Origin: a virus
Strand: one strand, 5' to 3'
Virus record (IMG/VR): IMGVR_UViG_3300013307_000002
Location: 1-64,000 of that record
Length of the DNA: 64,000 bases
In this document: positions 23,543 through 60,863 of the stretch, piece by piece
How positions within the stretch are numbered: the stretch's first letter is position 1
How the letters are laid out: the number at the start of each line of letters is the position of its first letter
Position numbers and translations under genes: made by a program
Notes under the pieces: generated by a model
Told to the model about the DNA's origin: nothing
The model's input: only the letters and a program-made list of their open reading frames with translations
The model's database searches: none

Positions 23543-23725
23543 AGGATAAAATGTAAAGCGTAAAGGTTTACAACCTAAATTAATGTGAGGTGGCTTGGTG
23601 CCTTAATCTGAAAAAGATTATGTGAGCATGAGCCTCTTTACCTGTTGTCAGTGCGGTTACTACTGTGACGGCGCTGATAATGGTAAACAGGTTTTTAAAC
23701 AACACCTTAGCAGGGAGTGAAGTAA

Positions 23726-24022
23726 ATGGAAAAAATAACACTGGTTAGAATGTTTAGACAATTACTTGTTAGTTCAATCGACAAGTTAGGCGCAGGCGGT
23801 ATGAAACCGGAGGCTGTTTATCGGGAGTTTATCGCTCGCAAGGCTAACATCCTCGAAAATGTACACTCTACCACTAACCGCAAAGAGCATTTAGCGTTAA
23901 TGCTTATTGCAAACAAAGTTTATGTGAACCCCACTAAAAAGGGCAGTAGCGAACTGTTAAAGAAAGAGTTTGAAACGTGTTTAAACAAACTCCCTTCAGC
24001 AGTTAACGGTTTTAAAAAGTAG
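23726..24022 (+). CDS. hypothetical early protein
   Basis: 98-aa ORF with GGGAG RBS. Confidence 0.6.
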   Translation: MEKITLVRMFRQLLVSSIDKLGAGGMKPEAVYREFIARKANILENVHSTTNRKEHLALMLIANKVYVNPTKKGSSELLKKEFETCLNKLPSAVNGFKK

Positions 24023-24089
24023 TAAACTGTAGTACAATCCGAGTGTAATAACTCAATCTCATAAATAAATACTTTGAAAGGTAAATAAA

Positions 24090-24971
24090 ATGTCTAAAGT
24101 TGAAATCGTAAAAGGTCAAGATAACATCCGTAGCGTAATTGGCGCAATCGCTGGTAAAGCTAAAGCGTACAAAACCGTTATTTCTAGCGCAATCCTCTCT
24201 GCTTATCAGCACTACCGTTTACACGGTGATTACACCCTGCTGCAAGAAGCGTTAGACACTGTTTTCTCTATCAATTACCGTGATTACTCCGCCGTTGCTG
24301 ATTTTGTTCGCTCTTACACTGAGCTGGAATGTGTTACTCTTAATCAGGGCCGCCGTCAGCGTGTTGAGATCGCTGGAACAATTGAATCTCAGATGGAACG
24401 CCCGGAAAATATGTCCATGAAAGATTGGAACGCTAAGCTGGAGTCTAAGCGTAGTGAAATGATCATCCGTAATGGTCGCTTTGACGATTTTGCTACCGGC
24501 AAGCCGATCCCAATGAAGAATCCTAATTGGGTACAGGGTATGCCTAAAGATGAAAAGCAGGAAGGCGTAGTTTACGACGGCGACATCTTTGCATGGCATG
24601 ATGATGTTAAATGGCTGCGCACTGCTGCCCCTACTGTTGGCGGTGAAAGCACTGAAAACCTGCGAGAGCTGCCGGTAGAGCAAGCGGTAAACGTCGCTGT
24701 TAAACTGGAAGATCGTGTCCTGAAATCCAGCAACAAGCCAGTGTTTGCTGTCCTGATTCATATGATGGAACGTTTTGAAGCTGAAACCGGCGTGTATGCT
24801 ACTGATGAAGAGATTGAAACTTTCCAGCGCCGTGTAAATGCACTGCTGGAGCGCACCAAAGCGCGGTCAGAAAGCAAAGCAGAACGTGAAGCTGCTGAAA
24901 AGCAGGCTGCTGAAGAAAACAGCGGTGAGCAGGTAGTAACAACAGAGCAGGGCGAACCACTGCCTTACTAA
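24090..24971 (+). CDS. hypothetical early protein
   Basis: 293-aa ORF with RBS and high-expression-type codon usage. Confidence 0.75.
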   Translation: MSKVEIVKGQDNIRSVIGAIAGKAKAYKTVISSAILSAYQHYRLHGDYTLLQEALDTVFSINYRDYSAVADFVRSYTELECVTLNQGRRQRVEIAGTIESQMERPENMSMKDWNAKLESKRSEMIIRNGRFDDFATGKPIPMKNPNWVQGMPKDEKQEGVVYDGDIFAWHDDVKWLRTAAPTVGGESTENLRELPVEQAVNVAVKLEDRVLKSSNKPVFAVLIHMMERFEAETGVYATDEEIETFQRRVNALLERTKARSESKAEREAAEKQAAEENSGEQVVTTEQGEPLPY

Positions 24972-25125
24972 TACCTGATTGTATAAAAGTCAAAGGGCAT
25001 AATCTAACAGGTTGTGCCCTTTATTGTATGCAATTATAAGATTTATGTTTACCCCGTCTTAAATGTAACCCTGCTAAGTTATTAGGCGGGGTAGACATAC
25101 CCATTATTACTAGGAAAAATTATCA

Positions 25126-25524
25126 ATGTCTGAATTTGTACAGATGAAAGATGCTCAAACCGCTGAAGAGAAAGCAGCATCTATCGCAGCTATTGCAGCC
25201 CGTAGTAAAACACGCCACCTAACTAACTTTGGTTTAAGCCGTGGTGCTCTGCGAGTGTCTAAGCAGTCTGAAAATAGTGATGTCCGTAGCAGCGTAACAT
25301 CTCGCTTTCGTAAACCTGCGGAACGTGGTACGTTAGAACATCGTGAGACGCGCAAAGTAACTAAAGGCCGTCAGAAAGTTAAAGGTAAAACTATTGAGCC
25401 TGACGGCTGGTATACTCTTTCTCAGGGCGCTGATTGTGTGATGGGGCGTGATGAAAACAAACGCACCAAAGCTACCACGTCACAAGGCGTTTTTGTGAAC
25501 GGAAAGAATAAAGGGTTTAAATGA
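25126..25524 (+). CDS. basic hypothetical early protein
   Basis: 132 aa, Lys/Arg-rich; followed by a terminator. Confidence 0.7.
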   Translation: MSEFVQMKDAQTAEEKAASIAAIAARSKTRHLTNFGLSRGALRVSKQSENSDVRSSVTSRFRKPAERGTLEHRETRKVTKGRQKVKGKTIEPDGWYTLSQGADCVMGRDENKRTKATTSQGVFVNGKNKGFK

Positions 25525-25554
25525 TCAACTGCTGTTTATAAGGTAACTTTACCT

Positions 25555-25583
25555 AGCCACTCCTCCGGGGGTGGCTTTTTTTT
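25555..25583 (+). terminator. rho-independent terminator
   Basis: AGCCACTCC-TCC-GGGGGTGGC followed by a T run. Confidence 0.8.
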
Positions 25584-25625
25584 GCTTAAAGAAAAGTGTA
25601 ACCTTTTGTATAGGAATGTCTAACA

Positions 25626-25982
25626 ATGAAACAGCAAACAATATCTAAAGAGCGTCGCAATGCGATGCATCGTAATTACAAGGCATACATAGGCAGGCTG
25701 ATTGCCTTGTTCCCTGAAGTGTTTGACCGTGAAAACCCTAAGCCGCTGGCTATCGGTACTGCTGAAATGCTTCTCAGTCTGCCAGCGTTAAAGATGGATG
25801 ATGATCTAGTGTCTGACGTGCTGGCTTGTTGGTGTAGCCGCCGGGAGTATATCCGTGCTGCTTATCAACTGCGGGAACGTTGGAACGTGGTCGGTGTGCC
25901 TGTTGGCCCTATCATTGATTGGCAACAGAAACGTTTTGACACTCTTTATCACAAGATGGTCAAGCGTGGTTTGTATAACTAA
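25626..25982 (+). CDS. proQ: ProQ/FinO-domain RNA chaperone
   Basis: 'LFPEVFDRENPKPLAIG...LACWCSRREY...RWNVVGVPVG' follows the FinO pattern P-x-F...PLKIGI...Y...R-x-DLDG. Confidence 0.75.
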   Translation: MKQQTISKERRNAMHRNYKAYIGRLIALFPEVFDRENPKPLAIGTAEMLLSLPALKMDDDLVSDVLACWCSRREYIRAAYQLRERWNVVGVPVGPIIDWQQKRFDTLYHKMVKRGLYN

Positions 25983-26042
25983 GCTATACGGGGCAGGTTT
26001 TACTACTGTGACGCCGCGCCCCCTCAGTAAAAGGAATTACTA

Positions 26043-26441
26043 TTGATCTCTACGGCTATATTATATGTCGCTCTCACTACTTACCATGAGGCAAGAGGTG
26101 AGCCAAAATTGTGTCAGTTATTAGTGGCTGAGACAGTGAGCAACCGTATGAAAAGCCGTGATTTAACAGCTAAGCAGGTTGTAAGACAAAAGAATCAATT
26201 CTCATGGGTATCTGTCTTAAAGGGCAGAAGTGTTAGACAGGAATATAAAAGAATACAAAGGACAGCAGAACCTGCTGATAGGAAAGCACTAGATGATTCA
26301 ATCAATCTGGCTAATTGGGTTCTCTCTCCTTTGTATGTTTCAGTGAGTGATGCTGAATATTTCCACGATACTAGCATACGTACCCCTAAACACTTTAAAC
26401 ATAGGATAACGTGTGGAGGTAAGCTAGTTTTTTCTAGGTAA
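26043..26441 (+). CDS. cell wall hydrolase (Hydrolase_2/SleB-like)
   Basis: 'YHEARGEP...VAETVSNR...VVRQKNQFSW...AEYFH' motifs. Confidence 0.85.
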   Translation: MISTAILYVALTTYHEARGEPKLCQLLVAETVSNRMKSRDLTAKQVVRQKNQFSWVSVLKGRSVRQEYKRIQRTAEPADRKALDDSINLANWVLSPLYVSVSDAEYFHDTSIRTPKHFKHRITCGGKLVFSR

Positions 26442-26654
26442 ATCAATATGGATAAATGCGTATTCTGTAAGCAGCCGATTGGTTTGCTACAAGAAATAAT
26501 CTTAATCAATTGGCGTAAGCGTAAAGGTGAGCGCCGTATTGTTATTGCTTATAGCTGCACTGGTTGTGGTGAAGATCGTATAACTGACTTCTGCCAGCCT
26601 GAAAGGCCAGTGTTCAAATAAACAACTACTGTGACGTTTTTGTGAGGAATTGCC

Positions 26655-27125
26655 ATGCGTAAATTATTGTTGTTGGCTGTGTCAGTCTCGTTAGTTTTCA
26701 CCGCCCCGGCAATGGCTCGTGGCAATTACAATTCATCCTCTGAAAATTACCAGAAATATCAGCAGGATACTCGTACCCCTGAAGAGATTGAAGAGGACGA
26801 GGATTATGAAGATGGTGTTACAGATTGGGAAGATCACACTGTACCATCTCCTCAGCATGACTCTCAGAACGCCTCTTTAGCTATGTGCGGTAAACACACT
26901 GTCTTTATAAATCAAGATGATAATGTGCTTACAGTGGATGGTTTAAGCTATCAGTTGCTGGGTTTTGATTATAAGGTAGTTAACTCAGAACCTGTTCTAA
27001 TTGATCACTATGCTCTTGGCAATAAGATTGCTAACTTAGCAGTATTTCAAAACTCTAAGAAAATGATCTTCTTTCTTCAGGGTGAAAAACACTCTGTTGA
27101 ATGTGTTCCATATCAGTGGAACTAA
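26655..27125 (+). CDS. exported hypothetical protein
   Basis: classical signal peptide ending 'APAMA'. Confidence 0.6.
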   Translation: MRKLLLLAVSVSLVFTAPAMARGNYNSSSENYQKYQQDTRTPEEIEEDEDYEDGVTDWEDHTVPSPQHDSQNASLAMCGKHTVFINQDDNVLTVDGLSYQLLGFDYKVVNSEPVLIDHYALGNKIANLAVFQNSKKMIFFLQGEKHSVECVPYQWN

Positions 27126-27445
27126 GAGTATATTTCTCATAATGGACTCAAAGCATGAGCTTAACGCTAGCGTTGGATCGCTTGCTTCTGCACATGCTTA
27201 GTATTCTTTTGTATAGGAGTTCATTATGGCTAAGATTAACGTTAAAACAGCCAAAAAACCTCTTAATAATAAAGAGGATAAGGCAAAAGATCCAGATGTG
27301 AATGATGTTAAACGTAAGTTAGCAGCACTACTTCTGTTTCAACAACTCCACAAAGAGAAGCCCAAGAAAGGTAGCCTATCTAAAGTGGATTCAAACGACA
27401 AACCCTCTGAGTAATCAGGGGGTTTTCTTTTATCAGGGTTAATAT

Positions 27446-27721
27446 ATGTACGAAGATTTCGGTAGTATATGGGTAACAGCGTTGCTGGTTTACCTTATCG
27501 TTTTCTTTATCGATTTTGTGTGGATGAATAAAGTAGACAAAGAGAATCAAGGTGTTATGACTAAAGCAGATTACTTTATTAATCTGGTTGAAAGCATGAT
27601 GTGGCCTATCCTCTTACCACTTGAGATCATCTTCTTTCTTATCATTACAGTGTTCTCACTAACTCTTGAGTCTTTGTTCTGGATTCGTCGTAAGGTTAAA
27701 ACGCTGTGTAAGCAATTCTAG
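27446..27721 (+). CDS. small membrane protein
   Basis: two hydrophobic segments, 'WP' motif. Confidence 0.55.
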   Translation: MYEDFGSIWVTALLVYLIVFFIDFVWMNKVDKENQGVMTKADYFINLVESMMWPILLPLEIIFFLIITVFSLTLESLFWIRRKVKTLCKQF

Positions 27722-27730
27722 GAGGCGTCA

Positions 27731-27949
27731 ATGGATGCCGGGTACATTCTTACTATCTTCTGGTTTTTCTTTGCCTGCATCACATTTGGCTGCCTTGTAG
27801 GTGGTGATACACCTAAAGAGTTCATCAAGCCTACTAAGGGTTTTGTCTTAAAGGCTTGGTTTATCTCTGTATTCTGGCCTATAGCTTTCCTCTTAGTTAC
27901 TATCGAATATCTTGCTAAGAAAACTTCTTGGTTAGGTGGTTGGAGATAA
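27731..27949 (+). CDS. small membrane protein
   Basis: two hydrophobic segments, 'FWP' motif; GGAGG RBS. Confidence 0.55.
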   Translation: MDAGYILTIFWFFFACITFGCLVGGDTPKEFIKPTKGFVLKAWFISVFWPIAFLLVTIEYLAKKTSWLGGWR

Positions 27950-28012
27950 AATAGTTGGTAGTGTTTATATACTATAGCGAATGGATATAGTATATAACCA
28001 GTAACTAATTAT

Positions 28013-28088
28013 GATTCTGTAGTTCAGTTGGTAGAACGGTGGACTGTTAATCCATATGTCGCAGGTTCAAATCCTGCCAGAATCGCCA
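28013..28088 (+). tRNA. tRNA-Asn(GTT)
   Basis: cloverleaf GATTCTG/CAGAATC, loop CT-GTT-AA, TTCAAAT T-loop, encoded CCA. Confidence 0.95.
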
Positions 28089-28094
28089 AACAAT

Positions 28095-28163
28095 GGGAAC
28101 CTGAGCACTCTAGGGGACTAGAATATGAGCAATGGTTAATGACACTCGTGATGGTTCCCACCA
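28095..28163 (+). ncRNA. non-canonical tRNA-like RNA
   Basis: 7-bp acceptor GGGAACC/GGTTCCC plus A-CCA, but only two internal hairpins and no T-loop. Confidence 0.55.
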
Positions 28164-28169
28164 TTCAAT

Positions 28170-28256
28170 GTTGGATTACTCAAGCGGCAACGAGAGCAGA
28201 CTGTAAATCTGTGGCCCATATGGGCTTCGAAGGTTCGAGTCCTTCATCCAACACCA
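28170..28256 (+). tRNA. tRNA-Tyr(GTA)
   Basis: GTTGGAT/ATCCAAC, loop CT-GTA-AA, long variable arm, CCA. Confidence 0.95.
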
Positions 28257-28291
28257 AACAATGCACCTATAGTTAATTTTTGAGGTTTACT

Positions 28292-28501
28292 ATGGCAGAC
28301 TGTAATCGTTGTGGGGATTCTGGGGGAAAGTACTCCCCAAATGAAAACTCTAATAATGGGGTTTTCTGTTACAACTGTATTGATATTGTGTTAGCTGGGG
28401 GCGGAGGAGGTGACTGTAACCCTCGTTACTCTGATAACCCCGGCACAAGGGAAGCTTATAGAAGACTTATGAGCGCCCCAAACTCAGAGTACAAGTATTA
28501 A
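28292..28501 (+). CDS. small CxxC/CxxC zinc-binding protein inserted in the tRNA array
   Basis: GAGG RBS; 'CNRC' and 'CYNC'. Confidence 0.55.
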   Translation: MADCNRCGDSGGKYSPNENSNNGVFCYNCIDIVLAGGGGGDCNPRYSDNPGTREAYRRLMSAPNSEYKY

Positions 28502-28514
28502 TCAAATATATAAT

Positions 28515-28589
28515 GCACCTATAGTTAAATGGATATAACAGGAGCCTTCTAAGCTCTAGTTCTAGGTTCGATTCCTAGTGGGTGTGCCA
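28515..28589 (+). tRNA. tRNA-Arg(TCT)
   Basis: GCACCTA/TGGGTGT, loop CT-TCT-AA, CCA. Confidence 0.93.
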
Positions 28590-28595
28590 TATTTA

Positions 28596-28684
28596 GCCCG
28601 GATGATGAAACTGGTAAACATAGGAGACTTAAAATTTCCCGTCTCGTAAGAGGCTTGCGGGTTCGACCCCCGCTCCGGGCACCA
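28596..28684 (+). tRNA. tRNA-Leu(TAA)
   Basis: GCCCGGA/TCCGGGC, loop CT-TAA-AA, long variable arm, CCA. Confidence 0.93.
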
Positions 28685-28717
28685 AACAAAGTAACTTTCA
28701 GTTCAGTGAGATAAAGT

Positions 28718-28915
28718 ATGAACAGAGAGCAGTCCTTGCACTGGAGGGGTTGGTTAGAAAAACAGCCCATGTTTAATGCGAGAGTTTACTGTGTTAGATG
28801 TATGGCACCTTATAAAATAGGTGAATGTCAAGAGACACTAGATTCTCCGGGTTGCTATTGGAAGGAGAGTAAATGCCCTTCATGTGGGTGTAAACTTTAT
28901 TACAGCCATCTATAG
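28718..28915 (+). CDS. small zinc-finger protein
   Basis: 'CVRC' and 'CPSC' motifs. Confidence 0.5.
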   Translation: MNREQSLHWRGWLEKQPMFNARVYCVRCMAPYKIGECQETLDSPGCYWKESKCPSCGCKLYYSHL

Positions 28916-28945
28916 TAATACATCTAGCAAGAATAACCAAACAAT

Positions 28946-29020
28946 AGGGCTATCGTATAATGGTTATTACATCGGCCTTTGACTCCGATAATCCACGTTC
29001 GATTCGTGGTAGCTCTGCCA
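28946..29020 (+). tRNA. tRNA-Gln(TTG)
   Basis: AGGGCTA/TAGCTCT, loop CT-TTG-AC, CCA. Confidence 0.9.
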
Positions 29021-29050
29021 ATTTAAATGTGTAAACTAAAGGTGGCTAAT

Positions 29051-29470
29051 ATGAAAAAGCTTTCACTGGTATTGTGTGCTTTAGCATTAGCAGGTTGTGC
29101 TCATACTTCCACCGAAGTTAGTGAGCCGATTGCTTGCAGTGCAGATTGTGATGCACGGTTTGAGAACATCAGAGCTGTTGCTACTAAGTTCTTGGGCTAT
29201 ACAATCACTCACGAAACTTCTAATAGTTTCACGGCTCAATTAGTAAATCTTGATAAATCTGTTGTGGTAACAAGTGCAATGAATGTATTCAAGATGCCAG
29301 AACAAATCTTCGTTGACGTAGAAACATCAGGCGTATCTGATATTACTACAGCGGCTAACATCTCTAACCTTACTAGCCATGAAGATTTCAGAACTATCAA
29401 AGTTCATAAAACAGAGAGTGTTGTAATACCAAACACTTATACAGAAAACCTGTTTAGGATTCCTCACTAA
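29051..29470 (+). CDS. putative lipoprotein
   Basis: 'MKKLSLVLCALALAGC' lipobox. Confidence 0.6.
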   Translation: MKKLSLVLCALALAGCAHTSTEVSEPIACSADCDARFENIRAVATKFLGYTITHETSNSFTAQLVNLDKSVVVTSAMNVFKMPEQIFVDVETSGVSDITTAANISNLTSHEDFRTIKVHKTESVVIPNTYTENLFRIPH

Positions 29471-29916
29471 TGTCAATGGCTAGTAAATATAACGCTATTT
29501 GCGAGAAGTGTGAGTCAGATATGGAAGAAGGCCCAGTTCTTTATTCAGAAGTTATGGACTGTGTTGTTCAGTCTTATATCTGTCCTCTTTGTAATCATGA
29601 GCAAGAGGAGGTAGTAGAGTGAGTATCATCTGGTATCTGCTCATTCGTTATAACAAGTTTAGCGATGATGCTTTGTTCGGGTTCAGTATCATAGGTGTGG
29701 TAGAGATGATTATTGAATTTGCTCTACTGGCAAACTTTATTCTTTAGTATAAAGACCCGGAAGTATAGGGTCTTTTCAATTGACAACATGAAAGATCATT
29801 ACCCACTTCCTTCTATTAGTGTTCGGTTATGACATTCCGCTGGTAGTGGTCTTTCAGGTGTTCATTGAATATCGCTTGGAATCGATAATCCTGTTTAGCC
29901 AGCATCAATGGCAATA

Positions 29917-30007
29917 GTTACAGGTCGTCTAGTGGACTAGGACAACAGCCAAGTAATTCTTAGGAATGAAACGCGGGAAACGTAGGTTCAAATCCTGCTC
30001 TGTAACA
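29917..30007 (+). pseudogene. pseudo-tRNA / tRNA-like RNA with replaced anticodon arm
   Basis: intact acceptor, D-arm (GTCTAGTGGACTAGGAC) and T-arm (GTAGGTTCAAATCCTGC); anticodon region expanded; no CCA. Confidence 0.6.
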
Positions 30008-30051
30008 TCTCAAATACTGAAAATGATACGTCTCTTCAGAGGAAATATAAA

Positions 30052-30411
30052 ATGGGCAACAAAAAATCTAACGCAGGTAAAGGTTCACTGGCAGCATACA
30101 AATCAAACAATAGCTTTGGTAAAAATAAAGTTCGTAAGCTGCAAACTCACCTGAAAAAGCATCCTGAAGATGCTGTTGCTGCTGCAACCCTGTCGGCTGT
30201 AAGCCGTTCTATTGCTACCTCCCCTCGTTGGGGTCATAAGCGTGTAGGTAATCTGAATGCATCTCAGCGCCTGCAAGATCAAACTGTAAGCAAAGTGAAG
30301 TCTGGCCTGCGTCAGCTCTCTTTCCTGTCTCGCCACGACAATGTTGAAATGGTTGACGGTAACTACACCTCTGATCAAATCAAAGAGCGTGCTGCACGTA
30401 AAGCCGCGTAA
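30052..30411 (+). CDS. basic hypothetical protein
   Basis: 119 aa, GAGG RBS, followed by a terminator at ~30419-30449. Confidence 0.7.
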   Translation: MGNKKSNAGKGSLAAYKSNNSFGKNKVRKLQTHLKKHPEDAVAAATLSAVSRSIATSPRWGHKRVGNLNASQRLQDQTVSKVKSGLRQLSFLSRHDNVEMVDGNYTSDQIKERAARKAA

Positions 30412-30602
30412 TTCTGCCGGGGAGCCTTTTGGCTCCTCTTCTTTTTTTTATATGTGAGAGATGCTGTAATGATTGAGAATGCTGACGACAACGATATCCT
30501 GAATATTGCAATCGTTGCTTGTGTGGTTTGTATTGCTCTGGTTCTGTGTGTAGCCATCCCTGCTGCATACTTTTTATTTACTACTGTGACGGGTGGTGCG
30601 TA

Positions 30603-32383: not shown

Positions 32384-32421
32384 GTTTAAAGTATAACCCA
32401 CTGAAATAAATAGGAATAAAT

Positions 32422-35521: not shown

Positions 35522-35533
35522 GAGGTAACTACT

Positions 35534-36001
35534 GTGACGGATTTTGTTTTGGAAGCATCTAAATTAGCGGCTCAGTTTCATCAGGGTCAAAAGTATGGCA
35601 ACCTCGATTACTTCGAGGGTCATATTGATTCAGTCGCAACTCAAGCTGATGTAATTGCATATGGTTTGAAGTTTAGTAGTGAAGAAATCCGCCATGTGGT
35701 TGCCGCTGCGTATCTTCATGATATTCTTGAGGATACTTTCTGTGAAGCTAAAACTCTCCTTGAGAAAGGTATACCGCATGTTGTTGTAACTGCTGTCGGT
35801 GTTCTGACTAAAGGGTGCGAGTCTAAGAGTCAGTATTTAGCGGCTATCTCTTGTAGTAGAATAGCTACTGTCGTTAAATTGGCTGACAGCATGGTGAACT
35901 TAAGGGCTTGTATTGCTGATGGCAAATTTGTCAAAGCTCTTAAGTATTCAGACAACATCAACTTTCTTACGACTGTTATTAGTCGTTGGAGTGGTCAATG
36001 A
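35534..36001 (+). CDS. HD-domain hydrolase, SpoT/Mesh1 small alarmone hydrolase-like
   Basis: 'FHQGQ.Y...Y..H', 'AAYLHDILEDT', 'VKLADSMVNL'. Confidence 0.8.
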   Translation: MTDFVLEASKLAAQFHQGQKYGNLDYFEGHIDSVATQADVIAYGLKFSSEEIRHVVAAAYLHDILEDTFCEAKTLLEKGIPHVVVTAVGVLTKGCESKSQYLAAISCSRIATVVKLADSMVNLRACIADGKFVKALKYSDNINFLTTVISRWSGQ

Positions 36002-45560: not shown

Positions 45561-45569
45561 GGGGGCTAT

Positions 45570-49771: not shown

Positions 49772-51025
49772 ATGACTCGTATTGCTATCCTTCCTTATGG
49801 CCCATCTGACTCTTGTACTGCACTGCGTGATGCTCTTATTGCTCAGTTTGAAGGTGACAACACTACTTCTGTTCGTAAACTTCGTAGTGATAATAGCAGC
49901 ACTTTTCGTGGTCGTGCTGGTGATATCATCATCAACTATGGCAATCGTTCAGCCCCTGAAGAACGTTTCGGTAATGCCTTTGTCTTAAACAGTCAGGGTG
50001 CTCTGAGAAATGCAGCTAACAAGCTGAATGCCTTGAATACGATGCGTAATAACAACGTGTCAACTGTCCCATTCACTGTAAACTCAGAAGAAGCTCGTAT
50101 TTGGGCGGCATCTGGTTCAGTTGTATATGCTCGTACAACTTTGAATGGTCACTCTGGTGAAGGTATTGTTGTTGTCAATGCTAATAACATTGATGCTATG
50201 CCGGAAGCACCTCTGTACACCAAGGGTATTACTGGTCGTCGTCGTGAATGGCGTGTTCATGTTTTCGATGGTGTAATCACTCATGTTCAGGTTAAACGTC
50301 GTCGTAACGGTTATGCTGAAGATCCTAACTATCGTGATGATGTACGTAACCATCAAACTGGTTGGATTTATGCAACTGAAAACATCAACCCATCTCAGGC
50401 AGTTCTGCGTAATGCAGTGAATGCTGTTGCTTGTATGGGTCTTGACTTCGGTGCTGTTGATATCATCAGTCTTGGTGATGAAGCTTGGGTTCTGGAGGTT
50501 AATACTGCTCCGGGTCTTCAGGCAGAAACTACTATGACAGCTTTTGTCAATGCTCTAACTGCGAAAATTCATAACATTCGCTTCCGGGGTGCGCCTCAAA
50601 TGGTTATCACTCCAGCGTTCCAACTGGAACCAGAGGTACAGGAAGAAGATGCTTTTACTCCAGAAGAAATTGCTGCTGAAGAAGATGATCTTGCTGGTAG
50701 TTATGACCCAGAAGCCGCAGCCTTCTTTAATGCGGGAGCTTTTGGCACTGATCGTCCGGCAGCCATGTCAGCTCCTCAAGTACAAATGACTGCTGAAGGT
50801 ACTCTCCCTGAAGCAGAAACTCGCAATGTTCCAGATGGCTATTATCTTGCAAATATTCAGCGAATGGACGATCGTTCAACTGCAATGAATGTAATTGTGT
50901 GGGTTTCTAGTGGTCTTGTATATCGACACGGTTGGAACTCTCCGATTCGTCTGAGTCAAGTTCGTGGCCTTCGTGCCATCACCTCTGTAGTGTCTGGTAA
51001 CGAAACTGTAGCTGTTTCTGTATAA
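49772..51025 (+). CDS. ATP-grasp peptide ligase
   Basis: 'AANKL', 'REWRVHV', 'LDFGAVDI', 'VLEVNTAPG'. Confidence 0.88.
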   Translation: MTRIAILPYGPSDSCTALRDALIAQFEGDNTTSVRKLRSDNSSTFRGRAGDIIINYGNRSAPEERFGNAFVLNSQGALRNAANKLNALNTMRNNNVSTVPFTVNSEEARIWAASGSVVYARTTLNGHSGEGIVVVNANNIDAMPEAPLYTKGITGRRREWRVHVFDGVITHVQVKRRRNGYAEDPNYRDDVRNHQTGWIYATENINPSQAVLRNAVNAVACMGLDFGAVDIISLGDEAWVLEVNTAPGLQAETTMTAFVNALTAKIHNIRFRGAPQMVITPAFQLEPEVQEEDAFTPEEIAAEEDDLAGSYDPEAAAFFNAGAFGTDRPAAMSAPQVQMTAEGTLPEAETRNVPDGYYLANIQRMDDRSTAMNVIVWVSSGLVYRHGWNSPIRLSQVRGLRAITSVVSGNETVAVSV

Positions 51026-52760: not shown

Positions 52761-54557
52761 GTGAAAACAGATAAAGTAATCGTAGGTGATACAGCTTGTC
52801 CAGAATGTCGCTCTCATGGACGTGACAAGTCAGGCAATCACCTAATCCTTTTTCACAACACTCAGACAGATGAGCGGTGGGGCAAATGTGGTCGTTGTGG
52901 TCACTATGAGGTATTTGATAAGGGTAATATGCCTGAAGTCAAAGAGAAGAAGGAGCTAACTCCAGAAGAGCTTAAAGAGCTTTTGGATGAAGTTCTGGAA
53001 CTTCCTCAGAAAGACCTCACTGACAGATTGATTCCTAAATCTGTTGCTGAACGCTTCGGTGTTCGTATTGGTCTTAGTTGTGAAGATGGTCAGACCCCTG
53101 TAAGTTATTTCTTTCCTCGTGAGAAGGAAGGGGATATTCAGGGGTATGAAGTTAAAGGTATTGAACGTAAATATTTTTACTTCGTAGGTAATGTCAAAGA
53201 GTCTGATTTCTTTGGACTCTCTCAAGCACAGCGTGGCGATGTTTATAACAAGAAGCTTTTCATCTTTGAGGATGCTTTGAGTTGTATGTCTGGTTTCCAT
53301 GTCCTGACTCAGTTCACGACAGCCACTAACATCAAACCAGCTTGTGTTGCACTTCCAAACGGTGCAGGAAGCATCTCTTCAGTCATGTCTCGCAATCGTG
53401 AGTTTCTTAACGGCTTTGATGAAATTGTTATCTGTATGGATAATGATTCTGCTGGAGAGGAAGCTCTGATTAAAGGTCGTGCTCTTTATCCGAATGCCAA
53501 GTTTGCAAGGATTCCGAAAGGTATCTTTACTTACAAAGGTAATGAGAAAGAGATGAAGGATGCCAATGATATGCTTCTGGCAGGTCGTGGTCAGGAACTC
53601 TTTAACATTCTCAAGTATTCAGCGAAACGTGAATCTCCAGCAGGTTCTGTTACGGTGTTTGATTGCTTAGAGGATGCTCTAAAGAAACCTGAGTGGGGTA
53701 TTCCATATCCGTGGGAGACTCTGAACAACATGACCTTTGGTATTCGTTGGGGTGAGATGGTCGCTATTGGTGGCGGTGTAGGGTCTGGTAAGACTCTGAT
53801 TGCTCATGAACTAGTAGCGTGGCTTTGCCTCAAGCACGGATTTAATGGCGGTGGATTCTTCTTAGAAGAAAAAGTCGGCATGTCCGTTAAGAATATCGCT
53901 GGTAAAGCAGCAAGTATTCCATTCCATCGTCCAGATATCGAGTATGACCAAGATGTTCTGTACAACGAAGCTTTGAAGTTCGCTGATAAGTTCTTCCTGT
54001 ACGACAACTTTGGTCAGAATGACTGGAGTGATATTAAGCAGTGTATTCGTTTTTGGGTTGTTGAGAATGATTGTAAGTTTATTATTCTTGATAACATCAC
54101 AGCCCTTGTCTCACATCTTACTCCTTCAGAGATCAATACTGAGATTAGTAAGATTGCATCTGAGCTTGCTGGTATGTGTCAGGAACTGAACTTCACTGCT
54201 TTTGTTCTGTCTCACTTGAACTCACCAACATCAGGCAATCCTCATGAAGAGGGCGGTCAGGTTAAAGAGGTGCAGTTCACTGGTTCTCGTTCACTTATGC
54301 GTTGGTGCCAGTGCATCATCGGCTTTGAGCGTAACAAACAGGCAGATGGTAATGGAAAGAACTTGTCCTTGATTCGACTTCTCAAGGAACGTAACTATGG
54401 TCAGACAGGTATCTGTTATACCAAGTACGAACCAGCCACAGGGCGTCTCTTAGAGCGTACTGAGGAAGAAGTGGATGAAGGTAATCCTTTTGCTTGCATG
54501 GAAGATGTAATCGCAATGGAAGAAGGTGCGAAAGAGAATGACAAGTCTCCGTGGTAA
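52761..54557 (+). CDS. primase/helicase (T7 gp4-like)
   Basis: Zn-binding 'CPEC...CGRC', TOPRIM 'MDNDSAG', 'GGVGSGKT', 'IILDNI', 'VLSHL'. Confidence 0.93.
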
Positions 54558-55074
54558 TAAAAAGATCTATGCGTTCGATATTGAATCCAACGGTCTGTAT
54601 GATGATATTACAACCGTTTGGTGTGTCTTTATCGAGGACATTCTCACAGGAGAGAAGTGGGGGTATCGCCCCCATGAGATTGAATTTGCTATTGAGAAAC
54701 TGAAAGATGCTGATATTCTCGTAGGGCATAACATCATTGACTACGACTTACCAGCTCTTGCTAAAGTTTATGGGCAGCTTAAGGGCTGCTCTTTCAATGT
54801 AGTAGATACTCTCTGCCTGAGTCGTTTTCTTCAACCAGACCGTAACTTTGAATCTCCTCCGGGACACTCCTTAAAATCTTGGGGTATCAGGTTAGGTGAT
54901 GCAAAAGGTGCTTATGGTGATGAAGTAGAAAACGCTTGGGACGTCTTCAGTGAGGAGATGTTTGAATATTGTGAGCAGGATGTTCACGTAACTGTTCTGC
55001 TGTACAAAACACTGTGTAGGGCGGCTGGTTATGATGTTGCAGACCCGCCGACTATCACTAATACGTTAAATTGA
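54538..55074 (+). CDS. stand-alone DNA polymerase A 3'-5' exonuclease domain (split polymerase)
   Basis: ExoI 'FDIESNG', ExoII 'GHNIIDYD', 'HSLKSWG', ExoIII 'YCEQDV'. Confidence 0.88.
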
Positions 55075-55090
55075 TTATTAGGATAATCCA

Positions 55091-55930
55091 ATGCAAGTAT
55101 GTTCTCTTGGAACCGCTCTAGCTTCTATTGCTCCAAATCAACGGCTTAATACGGGGATTGATTTCTTAAGACTTTTGAGGTCTGAAGGTATTTGTCCTTT
55201 AGGGGAAGGGTTATCCCCTGCTATCATGGGAGGTGCTCCCAGAGATGTGTTCTTTTCAGGAACTAACCCCAATGATATCGATATCTTCTTTTTTGCAAAC
55301 CTAAACTATCAGAGAGCCTCTTCTACAAGGGTTTTAAATAATCTGAAAGAGGATTTAATTGTTTGGTTGGAAGATCAAAACATTGACTACGAATCTCTTC
55401 TCAACGAAGCTAGTAGTGAATATGGAAACGAAAATCGATTCTTGGATATTATCTCTTTTAATTGGAGAGATACAAAGATCCAAGTAATGATTCCTAGTAG
55501 TCATCTTAATACCTCTGGTGATGTATTCTCTTTAGTTAATTCTATGCCGTTGTTCAGCTCAATAGCTGTCACTCAGGAGAATCTTGTTATTGCTAATACA
55601 TTCTTAGCTGCGTATAAGATGTCTGAAAGTAATCTGTATCCATTTACAAGTTATAAGGATGTTGCCTATATACGTAAAAAACGTCCTAATGGTAATTTAA
55701 TCCATGTATCATCAGGAGATGCTTTAAATTATTTAGCTTTTGGTGAGGATGCAAGGAGTGTGTATATTCCTCCTAGTGACCAAAGATCTCCAGAAATGAT
55801 TTACAGATCTTCTAATCCCGTAAGAAGAAGTGTGCTATCACGGAGAGAGATCTCTCGTAGATTCTCCGGGCCTGTTGCATCATCTTTCCGTGATACTTTG
55901 AGTGTCACAAGTTTGAATGAAACGCTTTAA
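55091..55930 (+). CDS. nucleotidyltransferase (CCA/poly(A) polymerase head-like)
   Basis: 'MGGAPRD...PNDIDIF' motif. Confidence 0.65.
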   Translation: MQVCSLGTALASIAPNQRLNTGIDFLRLLRSEGICPLGEGLSPAIMGGAPRDVFFSGTNPNDIDIFFFANLNYQRASSTRVLNNLKEDLIVWLEDQNIDYESLLNEASSEYGNENRFLDIISFNWRDTKIQVMIPSSHLNTSGDVFSLVNSMPLFSSIAVTQENLVIANTFLAAYKMSESNLYPFTSYKDVAYIRKKRPNGNLIHVSSGDALNYLAFGEDARSVYIPPSDQRSPEMIYRSSNPVRRSVLSRREISRRFSGPVASSFRDTLSVTSLNETL

Positions 55931-55954
55931 TAATTTAAAACAAGGATGTTTATA

Positions 55955-56488
55955 ATGAGTTTATTAGGTTCTAAAGAATTACATGATGTAATCGATCAAG
56001 GTTTTCTGGATGCTAAGCATGAGTTTGTTAATGCAGCATCTATTGATATTCGTATTGGCGACACCATTCTGGTAGAAGTTGCTGCGAGTGGTGTTGTTGA
56101 TATTGATAAGAAAGAGAATCTTAACTGGAAAGAAGTTGTTATTCCAGATGAAGGTTATGTGGTGAAGCCCGGTGAGTTCTTCTTGGCTCATAGTGTTGAA
56201 GAGTTTAACCTCCCTGATAATATCAGTGGACAGTTTATTCTCCGTAGCTCTATGGCTCGTTGTGGTATGAATCACGCATTTGCCGGTTGGGTGGATGCAG
56301 GCTTCACTAAAAGTAAACTAACTTTTGAATTTTATAATATAACCCAGCATCATAGCTTGAGGATTAAGAAGGGGATGCGTGTTGGTCAAATGGTATTTTC
56401 TGAACACTCACCTGCTGGAGACCACTCATATGCTGTGAAAGGTAACTACAACAACAGTGCGAGTGTAAGAGCAAGTAATGGTGTTTGA
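55955..56488 (+). CDS. dcd: dCTP deaminase
   Basis: 'NAASIDIRIG', 'RSSMARCG', 'AGWVDAGF...LTFE', 'GQMVF'. Confidence 0.9.
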   Translation: MSLLGSKELHDVIDQGFLDAKHEFVNAASIDIRIGDTILVEVAASGVVDIDKKENLNWKEVVIPDEGYVVKPGEFFLAHSVEEFNLPDNISGQFILRSSMARCGMNHAFAGWVDAGFTKSKLTFEFYNITQHHSLRIKKGMRVGQMVFSEHSPAGDHSYAVKGNYNNSASVRASNGV

Positions 56489-56936
56489 TTTACCAGAAAT
56501 TAAAAGAAGGTTTGATTACCATCAAGATGGGTATTTGATCTGGAAAATTTCTCCTTCTAATAATGTAAAAGTGGGCGACATAGCTGGGTGTTTAAATAGG
56601 GATGGTTATTATAGAGTAACTATAAATAACAGAATTTACCTTCTTCATAGGATTATTTATTTTTGGCATCACGGAGTTCTTCCTGAACTTATTGACCATA
56701 AAGACAGGAATCCTTTGAATAATAAAATAGATAACCTGAGAAGCTCAGATAAAACAAGAAACGGCCTAAACAGAGGTGCTAATAAAAATAGCAAATCTGG
56801 CATAAAAGGTGTTTCATTTGATGTATCAAGAACTAAGTGGAAAGCTCAACTAAAAATCGGATCTAAAGTTTATTCTAAAAGGTTTGATAGTTGTGATGAT
56901 GCAGTAGCTTGGTTAGAAAATTTAAGGAAGGTATAA
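56478..56936 (+). CDS. HNH endonuclease with AP2-like C-terminus
   Basis: 'HRIIY...IDHKDRNPLNNKIDNLR', 'SGIKGV...KWKAQ'. Confidence 0.88.
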   Translation: MVFDLPEIKRRFDYHQDGYLIWKISPSNNVKVGDIAGCLNRDGYYRVTINNRIYLLHRIIYFWHHGVLPELIDHKDRNPLNNKIDNLRSSDKTRNGLNRGANKNSKSGIKGVSFDVSRTKWKAQLKIGSKVYSKRFDSCDDAVAWLENLRKV

Positions 56937-57472
56937 TGTCTCAAGTAAAAGTGTCAAAAGAAGATGGTCGCTATTTCATCCAAATCGATGAAGGGGAAAC
57001 TGGAGTAAATCTTTTTGTAAAAGAAGATACTCTTCCACTCTTACAAGAGGCTATCACCACTCAATTTAACTCAGAAATCGTTCTGGATGATTTTGTCCTA
57101 GACGATGATGACTGTGCGGGGTGCAAGATTTAATGATTGTAAAAGATAGAAAGGGTGATTGGGTTGCTCGTATTTACACACAAAATCCCGGTGAGGACTT
57201 TAAGGTGATTTGTGAGCAGTATTATGCTACCAGAGCTGAAATGCGTGATGGTATTCAGTTGTGGAAAAAGCTAACAGCTAGCTCCACCACTAAAGTAAAA
57301 ATCAAAAGCTATCGAATTAAAATTTTAGGGGAGTCTATTGTCACCCCTATGGGCGTCTTCAACACAGTGGTATACAAAGAAGCTCGATAATGGAAAAAAG
57401 GGTGGGACTTTTGTCCTGCCCTTTATAATGTATATAATAGTATCTATGTACACATGAATAAGGATATTCAAA

Positions 57473-57730
57473 ATGGTATTGACTAAATTATATACTGATA
57501 GCTGCCAGCCTTGTAAGGATATGGCTCCTGTCATTGAAAAAGTTCTGGAAGATTTCCCTGAGATTGAATTTAAGGAAGTAAATGCTCGCACGGAAGAAGG
57601 TGCTGCTAAAGCGGCTGAGCTGGGTGTTCGTTCCGTTCCTACCCTGTTCCTTAATAATGACTATAAGCATAGCGGCCCAATGTCTGAATCTCAGCTAAGG
57701 TCGTGGCTTAGTAATTATCAAGGAGCATAA
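57473..57730 (+). CDS. thioredoxin/glutaredoxin-like protein
   Basis: 'CQPC' active site and 'VRSVPTL'. Confidence 0.85.
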   Translation: MVLTKLYTDSCQPCKDMAPVIEKVLEDFPEIEFKEVNARTEEGAAKAAELGVRSVPTLFLNNDYKHSGPMSESQLRSWLSNYQGA

Positions 57731-58053
57731 TGATGATTGATCTCAGACAAGTTGCTCCTCCTGAAGAAGTCGTAGCCCAATCAAGGGTTATGCAAAAGTA
57801 TTATCACCGAGATATGCTAGGTCGTTATATCAAGAACCGAGATATTGTGGCTTGGTCTATCGGCAATCAAGGTTATCTGTTGAAGGTTCTCCAAGTAGTA
57901 GGAAGCACAGCTAAGCGTGTTAAAGTCTATGACCCTGAGAAGGGTAAGTCTAAGGATGTTTTACCAACTAACTGTATTGTGATCACACAGCAGGTGTTGG
58001 ATAATATTCAGAGAAACGTAGCTCATTCCGAAAACGTAGATGGAGATGTATAA
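57730..58053 (+). CDS. hypothetical protein
   Basis: 107-aa translationally coupled ORF. Confidence 0.6.
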   Translation: MMIDLRQVAPPEEVVAQSRVMQKYYHRDMLGRYIKNRDIVAWSIGNQGYLLKVLQVVGSTAKRVKVYDPEKGKSKDVLPTNCIVITQQVLDNIQRNVAHSENVDGDV

Positions 58054-58496
58054 TGATTGAAACTTCAATGGGTCGCCTTGATGCAATGCAAAATCTTATC
58101 AGTGGATATAATTCAGAGACAGACGTTCTTAATGATTTGTCTCGACATGCACTGACTGTATTAACTAATGCACATGTCGCTGAGTATAGCGATGATAAAT
58201 GTGATTTAATACATCAACTTATTGATGATTTTTCTTGTCACTACTCTAAAATTGCTCGTCGCCTTCAGATTAAAGGTCGAACTATGACCTTAAGCGACAT
58301 TCCTTGTTGCAGTTTCGTTTCAGAAGAAATGGTTATCCCTCAATTGCTCTCCTTAATTTCAGAAATGCGGGACTGCCTGCTCTCTGGTATTAATGTAATG
58401 AGTATAGGAGATAAATATATTCTAGGTGAAATTGCTGCTAAGTTAGATGATACTATCTATTGTCTATCTGAATGCTTAATGAACGACGATGAATAA
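58053..58496 (+). CDS. ferritin/Dps-like four-helix protein (degenerate)
   Basis: 'NAHV...H.LIDD....SKIARRLQIKG' resembles Dps helices; metal ligands partly lost. Confidence 0.4.
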   Translation: MIETSMGRLDAMQNLISGYNSETDVLNDLSRHALTVLTNAHVAEYSDDKCDLIHQLIDDFSCHYSKIARRLQIKGRTMTLSDIPCCSFVSEEMVIPQLLSLISEMRDCLLSGINVMSIGDKYILGEIAAKLDDTIYCLSECLMNDDE

Positions 58497-58555
58497 TTTC
58501 CTGAATTACCCTGCATGATGCGGGGTTTTCTTGTCCTCAATATAAGGAGAGTAGC

Positions 58556-60502
58556 TTGACACAAACAGCAGAGGTAGTATTAGCAGAAGGTTTTAATGAA
58601 TCAGTAGCTGGAATTGCTCAGCAGCAGATTGATGCATTCTCTAATGGTATTGAATCGTTTGATAAGTTAAGAAATAGGACACCGAGATTTGAAGGTGAAC
58701 GAGTATACCTAAAGTCTTGGAATGAAGGTGTTGGTAAGGGTGGTGGTTTCTTTGTTGGTAAATTGACTAGACAAGCTGACGATGGTGGTTACATTGCTTC
58801 TGTAGGAAGTAATTATCACTGGAAGCGTGAATGTGTAGACATTGACCATCTGACAGTTCTAGACTTTGGAGCTGTAGGTGATGGAACAACTGATGACGCT
58901 CCTGCTGTTCGTAGGATGATTGATTTCTCTTATAGTAATTACGCTAAGACAATCAGTATTCATGCTGGTCGTGTTGGTGTTAGATTTCCAACTGGATCTT
59001 TCAACGTAAGCCCTATTGATATTACAGATAAAGGAGAAGTTCCTGAATTTGTTATCTTTGCTCCGTGGATGATCTTTGGTGTAATGCCTCTGACGACTAT
59101 CACCTCAGATAAGAGTGATAAACCTGTATTCCTTGTAAAAGCTCGTCGTATGACAGTGCATGGAATCAATTGGGATGGTCAACAGACTACTCCAATTAAT
59201 CGTAGGAATGAAAGTAACCCGACAGGCACTAATATGCTTGTAGGCGCTACTCTGGGTATCTTTAATGATACAGCAAGTAATAAACAATCATTCCTAAGAA
59301 ATATTTGTTCAGGTGGTGAATATGTTCGAATCCACTGTTTCCGTGCTTATCGTACTGGCGGTGTGGTATTCGATACCCTTGATACGTTGGATACTAAACT
59401 TGATCAAGTATATGGCAATATGACAGCAGCTCCGTTTATTACAGCGGGCTGGTCAAATCAGTCATGGGCTTCATGGGATCATTCAACAGCATTAGAGCTT
59501 TCAAATGCGAACTTCCAGTTCTGTATGGCTCCTGCTATTTATGCTCCTCGTTGTGCTCAGTCTATCTTTGATAATGTTTGGTTTGAACATGGAGCTATTC
59601 CTTTCGACATTAACAACGGTCACTTCCGACTGATGAATGTTAGTGTTGAAGATTGTGTTTACAATCCTGTTGCTTGGAAAGCTCGACTGAATATTCAAGG
59701 TTGGTCTGGCCCTACTGGTAATAAACTAGACACTACAACCACTCCTACTGATGCAGCATGGCCTAGCTATCCTACTAATCCTGATGGTCAACCTATCACT
59801 GGTTGGTTATCTGGTTATGAAGATGGTAAGTTTGAATTAGAGCATTACGGCGCTCGGTTTGATTGCCCTGTTCGTATTCTCTGGAGTGAGGGTAATGTTC
59901 GTGGTCGTAATAACACCGGTTCTTCAGTGTGGGTTAAACTCTGTAGATTGCAGTCTCAAACAGTGGGTCAGCAATGGGAGTTAGAAATCCTATCTAAGAA
60001 TGGTTATAGTGGACTGAGAGCAGCACCTAAGCCTACTGGCGATGGTACAGCAGGTAAGACAGTAATTCGAGTACAGAGGGGCGCTGGTTCAGCTCCTATT
60101 CTCTCTATGCATCATGAAGGTTTTAATGGTATTCTAGAGGCTCAGTATACTGCTCCTTATAGTAATATCGTAGAGATTTGGGTGAAAGTAGCTGCTTGGT
60201 GTGGTGAATATGCAATGTTCGCTAAATCAACAGGAGTCACTCGTTATGATGCAGGAGCTTGTTGTATCTTCACCCCTTATGGTGATCAACAGACAGATGC
60301 TCCGGGTCTTACACCTATTGCCCCTATGTTCAGTTTACATAATGGACAGGCAGGAGTTGGTGCTTATGGAGATACGATTGCGTTTGATACAGCGTTTGTA
60401 GCAGCCAATCAAATCGATACAAGTAAAACACCTGTATATGTTAAAGTCCGATTTAACGGGAAAGACTATGCATTAGCTTTAAGTAGCTTGCTAGCTTCCT
60501 AA
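58556..60502 (+). CDS. beta-helix polysaccharide depolymerase/tailspike-like protein
   Basis: 'GGGFFVG...DDGG', 'VLDFGAVGDGTTDDAPA', 'VRFPTG' pectate-lyase-3-type start; flanked by terminators. Confidence 0.75.
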   Translation: MTQTAEVVLAEGFNESVAGIAQQQIDAFSNGIESFDKLRNRTPRFEGERVYLKSWNEGVGKGGGFFVGKLTRQADDGGYIASVGSNYHWKRECVDIDHLTVLDFGAVGDGTTDDAPAVRRMIDFSYSNYAKTISIHAGRVGVRFPTGSFNVSPIDITDKGEVPEFVIFAPWMIFGVMPLTTITSDKSDKPVFLVKARRMTVHGINWDGQQTTPINRRNESNPTGTNMLVGATLGIFNDTASNKQSFLRNICSGGEYVRIHCFRAYRTGGVVFDTLDTLDTKLDQVYGNMTAAPFITAGWSNQSWASWDHSTALELSNANFQFCMAPAIYAPRCAQSIFDNVWFEHGAIPFDINNGHFRLMNVSVEDCVYNPVAWKARLNIQGWSGPTGNKLDTTTTPTDAAWPSYPTNPDGQPITGWLSGYEDGKFELEHYGARFDCPVRILWSEGNVRGRNNTGSSVWVKLCRLQSQTVGQQWELEILSKNGYSGLRAAPKPTGDGTAGKTVIRVQRGAGSAPILSMHHEGFNGILEAQYTAPYSNIVEIWVKVAAWCGEYAMFAKSTGVTRYDAGACCIFTPYGDQQTDAPGLTPIAPMFSLHNGQAGVGAYGDTIAFDTAFVAANQIDTSKTPVYVKVRFNGKDYALALSSLLAS

Positions 60503-60548
60503 ATAAATAACCTCGCTTCGGCGGGGTTTTCTTTTCTCTGGAGTAAGT

Positions 60549-60863
60549 ATGAAAAATCTTCCACAGCTTATTAATCTTTGTCGTAAAGCTCTTATGCCGC
60601 CTGCTTCTCCAGTAGAAGAGAAGACTACTGTGACGCCTAAAAAGTTTTCTTTATCAGAAGCTCACGCTATTCTATGTATTGCTGAGGAAGAGCGTAGACG
60701 TTCTTGTAATCAGTTACGGTTAGGGCAGGCTATCTGGAACGTAGCGAGAGATAAAAATCCAGATCTTATGTCAGCGCATTGTGCTACTGATAAAGATTTC
60801 TTCTATTTTAGAGATCCTCATAAGGCTTTAGAATACTTCAACACTTATTATGTAGAGCATTAA
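60549..60863 (+). CDS. hypothetical protein
   Basis: 'LRLGQAIWN...DFFY' motif common in small phage proteins. Confidence 0.55.
   Translation: MKNLPQLINLCRKALMPPASPVEEKTTVTPKKFSLSEAHAILCIAEEERRRSCNQLRLGQAIWNVARDKNPDLMSAHCATDKDFFYFRDPHKALEYFNTYYVEH

Follow-up and report, generated by a model that had tools for sequence, protein, structure and literature searches.

The 82,361-bp contig of virus record IMGVR_UViG_3300013307_000002 carries a short repeated word, ACTACTRTGACG. The word is a real motif on which selection acts at the level of the DNA, it coincides letter for letter with proven nick sites of other phages, and it recurs in several phage groups. Judged from its sequence and by analogy with those phages, the copies of this word are probably programmed single-strand nick sites. 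The word would be what a strand-specific nicking system encoded by the phage recognises, a system like those physically seen in the Pseudomonas phages tf and Rembedalsseter. By analogy with tf, the marked strand would be cut late in infection between the T and the R (ACTACT^GTGACG) and the cut would leave a ligatable 3'-OH and 5'-phosphate. The virion genome would then hold about eight or nine fixed single-strand interruptions: seven on the sense strand of early and middle genes, crowded to the early end, and one, again on the sense strand, in a late virion gene. We infer the actual nicking of this phage's DNA, its timing and the chemistry of its ends from the analogy.

A short strand-polarised word

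The window analysed here is the first 64 kb (64,000 nucleotides) of the single contig, and the remainder of the contig was also scanned for the motif. The six exact copies of ACTACTGTGACG that the initial annotation had noticed in the window, none of them expected by chance, were recovered exactly (Table 1). All six are on the plus strand with none on the minus strand, and the word had no match in any of the 100 dinucleotide-preserving shuffles of the window that served as the chance baseline. The tf consensus TACTRTGMC occurs seven times on the plus strand of the window and never on its minus strand (shuffle mean 2.04, maximum 6); its one match beyond the six 12-mers, at 50530 (TACTATGAC), corresponds to the variant already noted at 50528. 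Beyond the window the genome adds an exact copy at 75762 on the minus strand, giving eight copies genome-wide with 50528 counted, so that the claim of copies on the plus strand only holds for the window and fails for the genome. Counted on both strands of the whole genome, TACTRTGAC is present seven times on the plus strand and once on the minus strand, against 1.56 expected (Poisson P = 2e-4); the 7:1 strand ratio gives a binomial p of 0.07. The genome also contains a one-mismatch copy, ACTACTGTGATG, on the plus strand at 2627, which is a possible weak site; in Vibrio phage Vp_R1 the C-to-T variant at this position is found often on the strand that carries the motif (TACTGTGAT, 0/8 forward/reverse). 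The copies have nothing in common past two or three bases on each side, and the motif is therefore a sharp short word and not a piece of a longer repeat.

In phage tf, 14 nicks, all in the top strand, have been mapped to 5'-TACT/RTGMC-3', 11 of them to TACTGTGAC (Glukhov et al. 2012, PMC3517423), and the consensus stated in the initial annotation agrees with the one given in that paper. The tf nicks are reported to be sealable by ligase, to be present in more than 90% of molecules and to lie, in 11 of 14 cases, in the left (early) half of the genome (PMC3517423). In Rembedalsseter, one-strand drops in nanopore depth are described at 13 WACTRTGAC sites (Dougherty et al. 2025, PMC11780129). The present motif and the sites of these LUZ24-like phages have the 9-letter core and the G after it in common, so that 10 letters are shared. 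Direct examination of the tf sequence places this G after the core at 11 of the 14 nick sites, and it follows 7 of the 8 TACTRTGAC sites here. TACTRTGMC matches seven times in the window and eight times in the whole genome, and all but one of these eight matches have the main tf form, TACTGTGAC.

The phage further resembles tf in the crowding of sites to the early-gene end, in a predicted cut that falls right before a start codon and in sharing a core set of distantly related genes; a one-strand bias may be a further parallel, although the 7:1 ratio here leaves one site on the other strand. Each nick is annotated in the tf record, and sci1, sci4 and sci11 fall exactly before a start codon, as is predicted for site 35528. 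Unlike tf, this phage has a fixed 12-mer with an AC prefix, 8–9 sites in 82 kb compared with 14 in 46 kb, one conserved opposite-strand site in a late gene and a strong enrichment of sites between genes. The G after the core, the early skew, the predicted cut at a GTG start, the conservation in a diverged relative and the 17 genes shared with tf (both below) support the original reading of the 12-mer as a putative tf-type nick site.

The same features might instead reflect a double-stranded DNA binding site, left uncut, for a conserved phage protein; examples would be a regulator of early and middle transcription, or a signal for pausing or condensation during packaging or ejection. Such a site would fit the conservation and polarity of the copies and their enrichment at gene boundaries; breaks in this DNA are predicted from analogy, and the Aeromonas relatives have the core genes without the motif. 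We nevertheless consider this explanation rather unlikely, since the same 9–10 letters are reported as nicked at 14 of 14 instances in tf and 13 of 13 in Rembedalsseter, and it demands a change of function in phages that are very distant from one another, with no change in the sequence.

Phage genomes with nicks at fixed places have been on record for about 50 years (PMC3517423, PMC11780129). The nicks of the phiKMV-like Pseudomonas phages, with the consensus CGACxxxxxCCTA/CTCCGG (quoted in PMC3517423), are, like those proposed here, fixed-sequence, one-strand interruptions in a podovirus, and TACT is common to both motifs. However, those phages are unrelated T7-like viruses, and their consensus has no match on either strand of this genome. 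The major nicks of T5 have the consensus R/GCGCRGG, which alone is insufficient for nicking (quoted in PMC3517423); like those proposed here, they are programmed one-strand nicks, and nickless T5 mutants are viable. T5 is, in contrast, an unrelated siphovirus with another nick sequence, for which this genome contains one chance match.

Conservation and placement of the sites

Conservation at matching positions rests on one close relative, the uncultured IMG/VR contig G001 (87,959 bp), and on three Gordonclarkvirinae (phiEco32, Paul and SU7). G001 is collinear with the present genome throughout and 65–88% identical in aligned blocks; a metagenome scan for further early-region relatives returned only this contig and distant ones. 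It has six copies of ACTACTRTGACG, five of which match the sites at 26002, 26625, 30580, 35528 and 75762. All five matched 12-mers are complete, a single G having become A at the R position, where the consensus allows it, while their flanks carry many substitutions and indels, which argues that the motif is under selection at the DNA level. At the counterpart of 26002 (G001rc 305, ACTACTATGACG) a 13-nt indel abuts the motif upstream, and at that of 30580 (G001rc 6172) the upstream flanks are barely alignable. The counterpart of 26625 lies at G001rc 1146 and that of 35528 at G001rc 10920, the latter with its reading frame unchanged.

G001 also holds one site of its own and is without a site at three places, so that sites turn over. 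At the place of 23659 (G001rc about 85590) there is a 5-nt gap within the motif, at that of 60624 (G001rc 36691) the two genomes differ in length by four codons, and at that of 50528 the same residues are written with other codons (ACA ACA ATG). The differences at 60624 and 23659 are indels at the motif and not point changes (two cases), and these indels could be the mutational trace of a break at the site.

The Gordonclarkvirinae phiEco32, Paul and SU7 have 1/2 sites (forward/reverse) each, the three lying at matching places with conserved flanks. Their late-block site matches the minus-strand site at 75762 and falls in a proline-/glutamate-rich stretch of variable sequence, in a protein for which phiEco32 and this phage show only 27% identity. 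Since the minus-strand site is kept in G001, phiEco32, Paul and SU7, it is a real exception rather than noise, and the choice of strand is not absolute. The two early-region sites of phiEco32 (63070 and 70592, minus strand; also in Paul and SU7) follow a stop codon and a pyrimidine-rich run. With their last letters these phiEco32-type early sites supply one arm, the first, of a short hairpin such as GACGCT..AGCGTC; no such hairpin was seen around the window sites.

Within the present genome, five of the eight copies lie outside open reading frames (ORFs) or at ORF boundaries, where non-coding DNA makes up about 8% of the genome (binomial P = 1.8e-4). Five copies lie no more than 70 nt before a start codon or span one, and relative to local gene orientation all eight are on the sense strand. 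The earlier description of copies in intergenic DNA, across a start codon and inside ORFs is borne out site by site. At 35528 the predicted cut falls immediately 5' of the GTG start codon, site 26625 starts 3 nt past a stop codon ending at 26621, and directly 5' of site 30580 there is a weak terminator-like hairpin (30546–30570) plus a T run. Site 50528 is the weakest member of the set: it matches TACTRTGAC and is without the G that follows the core elsewhere. The three in-ORF copies (50528, 60624 and 75762) share the frame ACT ACT RTG ACN because one of the alternative frames gives an in-frame TGA and the other needs a cysteine codon; the preference for this frame is also seen in relatives.

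The common frame is what would be expected if the word were a by-product of coding for a repeated T-T-V-T peptide, or of chance. This explanation is refuted for all practical purposes by the absence of the 12-mer from the 100 shuffles, by the account of the frame given above and by conservation beyond that of the protein. The statement that protein coding does not explain the copies thus stands, five of them being non-coding and sites being kept where the surrounding protein sequence is not.

The sense orientation of all eight copies, together with the position of five of them shortly upstream of or across a start codon, is also what an RNA-level signal would produce, with the word ACUACUGUGACG on the mRNA acting as a processing site or as a translational operator near early and middle start codons. 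We regard such a signal as distinctly unlikely. Copies that are antisense yet stay on the motif strand occur in tf (two, sci13 and sci14, each of them physically nicked), Vp_R1 (95597) and Salmonella phage SE131 (63121), which argues for a DNA-level rather than an mRNA-level signal, and the near-copy at 2627 is likewise antisense on the motif strand. In addition, the flanks are unconserved, so that no common RNA structure is apparent, and the in-ORF copies at 50528 and 75762 are far from starts. The late-gene site presents the opposite case, being on the minus strand, sense and conserved.

The sites crowd towards the early end of the genome, which was placed from the promoters and the phiEco32 layout. 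Their distances from this inferred end are about 2.6, 5.5, 6.2, 11, 17, 35, 48, 66 and 77% of the genome, five of the nine sites thus lying within 17% of its length. A scan for sigma-70 promoters and terminators gave no general overlap with the sites, and the sigma-70-like promoters do not coincide with them. The gp36-dependent middle and late promoters of phiEco32 reportedly have a 9-nt consensus, which is not contained in the 12-mer and occurs once in the genome, at 57426, away from every site. A low-depth contig of a 2025 run (X13) ends at 30593, 2 nt past the 30580 site, and continues in adapter letters, and another such end, at 25529, is near no site; nothing is concluded from a single contig.

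Table 1. Positions of the motif copies, the early promoters and the candidate nickase gene (genome coordinates; the window ends at 64,000).
Feature	Position	Strand	Sequence or type	Context
Near-copy 2627	2627..2638	+	ACTACTGTGATG, one mismatch	antisense in minus-strand tail-fibre ORF 2218–5097
Near-consensus sigma-70 promoters	21823–21851, 22468–22495, 22880–22907	+		open the early plus-strand block
Site 23659	23659..23670	+	exact 12-mer	ORF-free early leader, 55 nt upstream of ATG 23726; predicted cut between 23664 and 23665
Site 26002	26002..26013	+	exact 12-mer	intergenic, stop 25982 / start 26043
Site 26625	26625..26636	+	exact 12-mer	intergenic, 18 nt upstream of ATG 26655
Site 30580	30580..30591	+	exact 12-mer	11 nt upstream of ATG 30603
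Site 35528	35528..35539	+	exact 12-mer	GTG at 35534 is the start codon of ORF 35534–36001
Site 50528	50528..50539	+	variant ACTACTATGACA	inside ATP-grasp ORF 49772–51025, read T T M T
Site 60624	60624..60635	+	exact 12-mer	inside ORF 60549–60863, in frame T T V T
Candidate nickase	63319..63636	+	105-aa HNH-like (His-Me finger) protein	replication module
Site 75762	75762	minus	exact 12-mer	inside minus-strand 1318-aa ORF 73786–77742

Spread among other phages and a candidate enzyme

The core was counted on both strands of 24 other phage genomes (counts given as forward/reverse), and 9 of the 24 show one-strand enrichment. These are Salmonella phage SE131 (12/1), Proteus phage 3H10_20 (1/7), Cronobacter phage 009 (0/7), Vibrio phage Vp_R1 (0/11, with GTACTGTGA at 0/17), Photobacterium phage PhCF1.2 (6/0), the uncultured relative G001 (1/5) and the Pseudomonas phages tf (14/0), LUZ24 (9/0) and Bjorn (0/17). 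Twelve of the 24 genomes have 0 to 5 sites and no one-strand enrichment. No site or a single one was found in Aeromonas phages BUCT695 (0/1) and LAh_9 (0/0), Vibrio phage Ph19S9E2, a Microcystis phage, N4-like CB3, Planktothrix phage Pra-JY27, Salinivibrio phage CW02 and the fragment G003. More sites, without concentration on a single strand, are present in the two other N4-like phages, P184 (3/2) and RHph_N38 (2/2), and in Vibrio phage 275E43-1 (1/1), and the fragment G002 (2/0, both TACTATGAT) was not counted as enriched. The prefix of the core varies by lineage, being AC in this phage, G001, SE131, the Proteus phage and SU7, AG in Kuravirus and GG or AG in Vp_R1, with no fixed prefix in tf. 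In BUCT695, k-mer counts gave no comparable polar replacement word, GAATATCTT (10/1) being without conserved flanks. Other repeated words of at least 12 letters occur in relatives, TAAT(T)AATCCACATA-like in BUCT695 and SE131 and TATTATGTGCAATAAT in Proteus phage 3H10_20, and these may be phage-specific promoters.

The text of the tf paper available to us names no enzyme for the nicking (PMC3517423). Of the three HNH genes put forward as nickase candidates by the initial annotation, only the one at 63319 is conserved across the group, while those at 20613–21101 and 56478–56936 are sporadic HNH_3 genes (Pfam) with the patchy distribution of homing-type genes. We tentatively regard the 105-aa HNH-like protein encoded at 63319–63636 as the likeliest nickase, well short of an assignment. 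It is 55% identical to tf_29, the highest identity to tf among the 17 ORFs that match tf, and every motif-bearing genome examined for it has a copy (tf, LUZ24, Bjorn, phiEco32, SE131, 3H10_20, Vp_R1, G001, PhCF1.2 and 009). Relatives were found in 259 phage records and in 201 protein clusters without an assigned family, and the motif-less outgroups Vibrio Ph19S9E2 and the Microcystis phage are without it. The presence of the protein tracks descent, however, and its association with the motif is therefore not independent evidence.

An alignment of 36 sequences of the 105-aa protein shows His58, Asn68, Asn72 and Asn81 to be invariant. Its AlphaFold model (mean pLDDT 73.5) has strands at 54–58 and 73–77 followed by a helix at 78–84. 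The protein has no Pfam match and no detected sequence similarity to any solved structure in the PDB. The top structural matches of the model are nearly all HNH domains and are weak (best Foldseek E 0.43, best Z 5.4), the best being the Gme HNH nicking endonuclease (PDB 4h9d; Z 5.4, root mean square deviation 4.7 over 65 residues), and none of these scores reaches the level needed to tell true relatives from a shared general arrangement. As in the small HNH nickases, the model has a putative ββα core, with an invariant His and three invariant Asn; unlike them, the protein is without zinc-binding cysteines.

Two Aeromonas genomes speak against the candidate. BUCT695 has an intact copy with all invariant residues and is without the motif, and the copy of the motif-less LAh_9 (63370–63681) has an in-frame TAG at codon 10, after nine codons. 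The TAG could mean a later start codon or a damaged gene; the sister phage LAh_8 is annotated with two hypothetical proteins at this place. In the present genome two fully overlapping plus-strand ORFs of about 120 codons each, 63268–63636 and 63272–63628, lie in different frames. Only the first, which encodes the HNH-like protein, has strong relatives; the weak matches of the second in phiEco32 and SE131 probably reflect conservation of the underlying DNA. Other candidates were rejected: the T7-endonuclease-I-like tf_46 is absent from this genome, G001, Vp_R1 and phiEco32 and was set aside as the common enzyme, and against a terminase or genome-end model neither the ends nor the terminal-repeat junctions of the tf and phiEco32 genomes are like the motif. 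No similarity was found between the phiEco32 ends and window positions 19301–23800.

Several points weigh against nicking as the function of the motif in this phage. One exact copy falls on the other strand, although a single strand carries every site in tf, LUZ24 and Bjorn, and the sense orientation of all eight copies with five at gene boundaries also fits an expression-linked signal. BUCT695 (0/1) and LAh_9 (0/0) have the core genes, including the candidate nickase, without the motif, and no ORF of this genome or of SE131 is found in all motif-bearing genomes yet absent from BUCT695. The available text of the Rembedalsseter paper reports no enrichment outside a 61-phage cluster among the 250 phages closest to Rembedalsseter (PMC11780129). 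Finally, the nicks are physical in tf and Rembedalsseter, whereas this phage is known from sequence alone, the 13 public runs that contain its DNA being assembled contigs, in which strand ends do not show.

The motif might also be a preferred start site of the phage primase-helicase, in which case the ‘nick’ would be an unsealed junction at the start of a new DNA strand. The motif is strand-polar, and the primase-helicase is well conserved (48% identity to tf and 57–77% to others). However, lagging-strand priming would need more sites, and more evenly spaced ones, than 8–9 in 82 kb that crowd into 14 kb; BUCT695, whose primase is 57% identical, is without the motif; and the tf nicks are reported as ligatable DNA ends in more than 90% of virions (PMC3517423). 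An origin in priming is thus very unlikely.

Phage lineage, host and implications

The large terminase, portal, scaffold and tail genes of the phage are on the minus strand (1–21,100 and 73,786–82,220), and the early, nucleotide-metabolism and replication genes are on the plus strand (about 22,600–73,250). Its closest named relatives are the phiEco32-type phages (portal 60% and scaffold 65% identity), followed by the Grimontviridae (portal about 43%). A far greater distance separates it from the LUZ24-like Pseudomonas phages (portal 27%, E = 2e-41), and 335 records in all have a related portal. In lineage as well as in its probably Erwinia- or Pantoea-like host the phage is unlike tf. In tf itself, tblastn matches were obtained for 17 ORFs, with 26% identity for the portal, 37% for the large terminase and 48% for the primase-helicase; the 17 ORFs and the portal match point to common descent with the nicked LUZ24-like phages. 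A DNA-level search of the phage collection found no close relative.

The source of the contig is a rhizosphere metagenome, and related contigs are present in silage and soil samples. An EPS-depolymerase/tailspike-like gene (58556–60502, plus strand; PHROG 4250) lies in the replication/middle block, far from the structural genes. The relatives of its product, about 40% identical, are mostly from phages of Erwinia (102 records) and Pantoea (16 records). From these relatives and the rhizosphere source, the host is probably a plant-associated member of the Enterobacterales, Erwinia- or Pantoea-like, and the description of the phage as enterobacterial is plausible only in this broad sense.

Identical 123-bp direct repeats are found at the contig ends (window 1–123 and genome 82239–82361) and likewise at the ends of G001, which IMG/VR labels as ‘direct terminal repeats’. 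The end repeats of the two contigs are at non-matching places of the genome; they are overlaps left by the assembler in circularly closed assemblies and not physical terminal repeats. Five tRNA genes (Asn, Tyr, Arg, Leu and Gln) are clustered at window positions 28013–29020; near-identical DNA in named phages, namely Erwinia, Salmonella and Klebsiella jumbo phages, was matched by this cluster and by no other part of the early region.

In the literature searched, and as far as the texts were available, the tf motif is linked to no phages other than the LUZ24-like ones of Pseudomonas, and no extension beyond them was found; phiEco32 is mentioned together with nicks only in the tf paper (PMC3517423), and Grimontviridae nowhere. 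A search for LUZ24 with nickase gave, beyond the tf paper, only a Staphylococcus phage protein, judged by its abstract. Our counts suggest that self-nicking is probably far more widespread than reported. A further and more doubtful possibility is that tf-type nicking is an old trait shared by the LUZ24-like phages, the Grimontviridae, the phiEco32-type phages and this plant-associated lineage. The 105-aa HNH-like protein, the best conserved of the proteins that they share, would then be the enzyme, the core would have stayed fixed with prefixes proper to each lineage (AC, AG, GG), and the sites would lie at gene starts on the non-template strand, with one strand switch within the late genes in this lineage. 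If so, the nicks would serve a process that runs with the direction of transcription and not only the polarity of packaging.

Should the sites prove to be nicked, programmed nicking would extend to phages of Salmonella, Proteus, Cronobacter, Vibrio, Photobacterium and E. coli, the last with only three sites, and the good genetics of these hosts would open the question to experiment. With three individually mutable sites, the phiEco32 group would offer a minimal system. The value of the finding would lie in a wider host range for the phenomenon and in one small, named candidate enzyme for assay.

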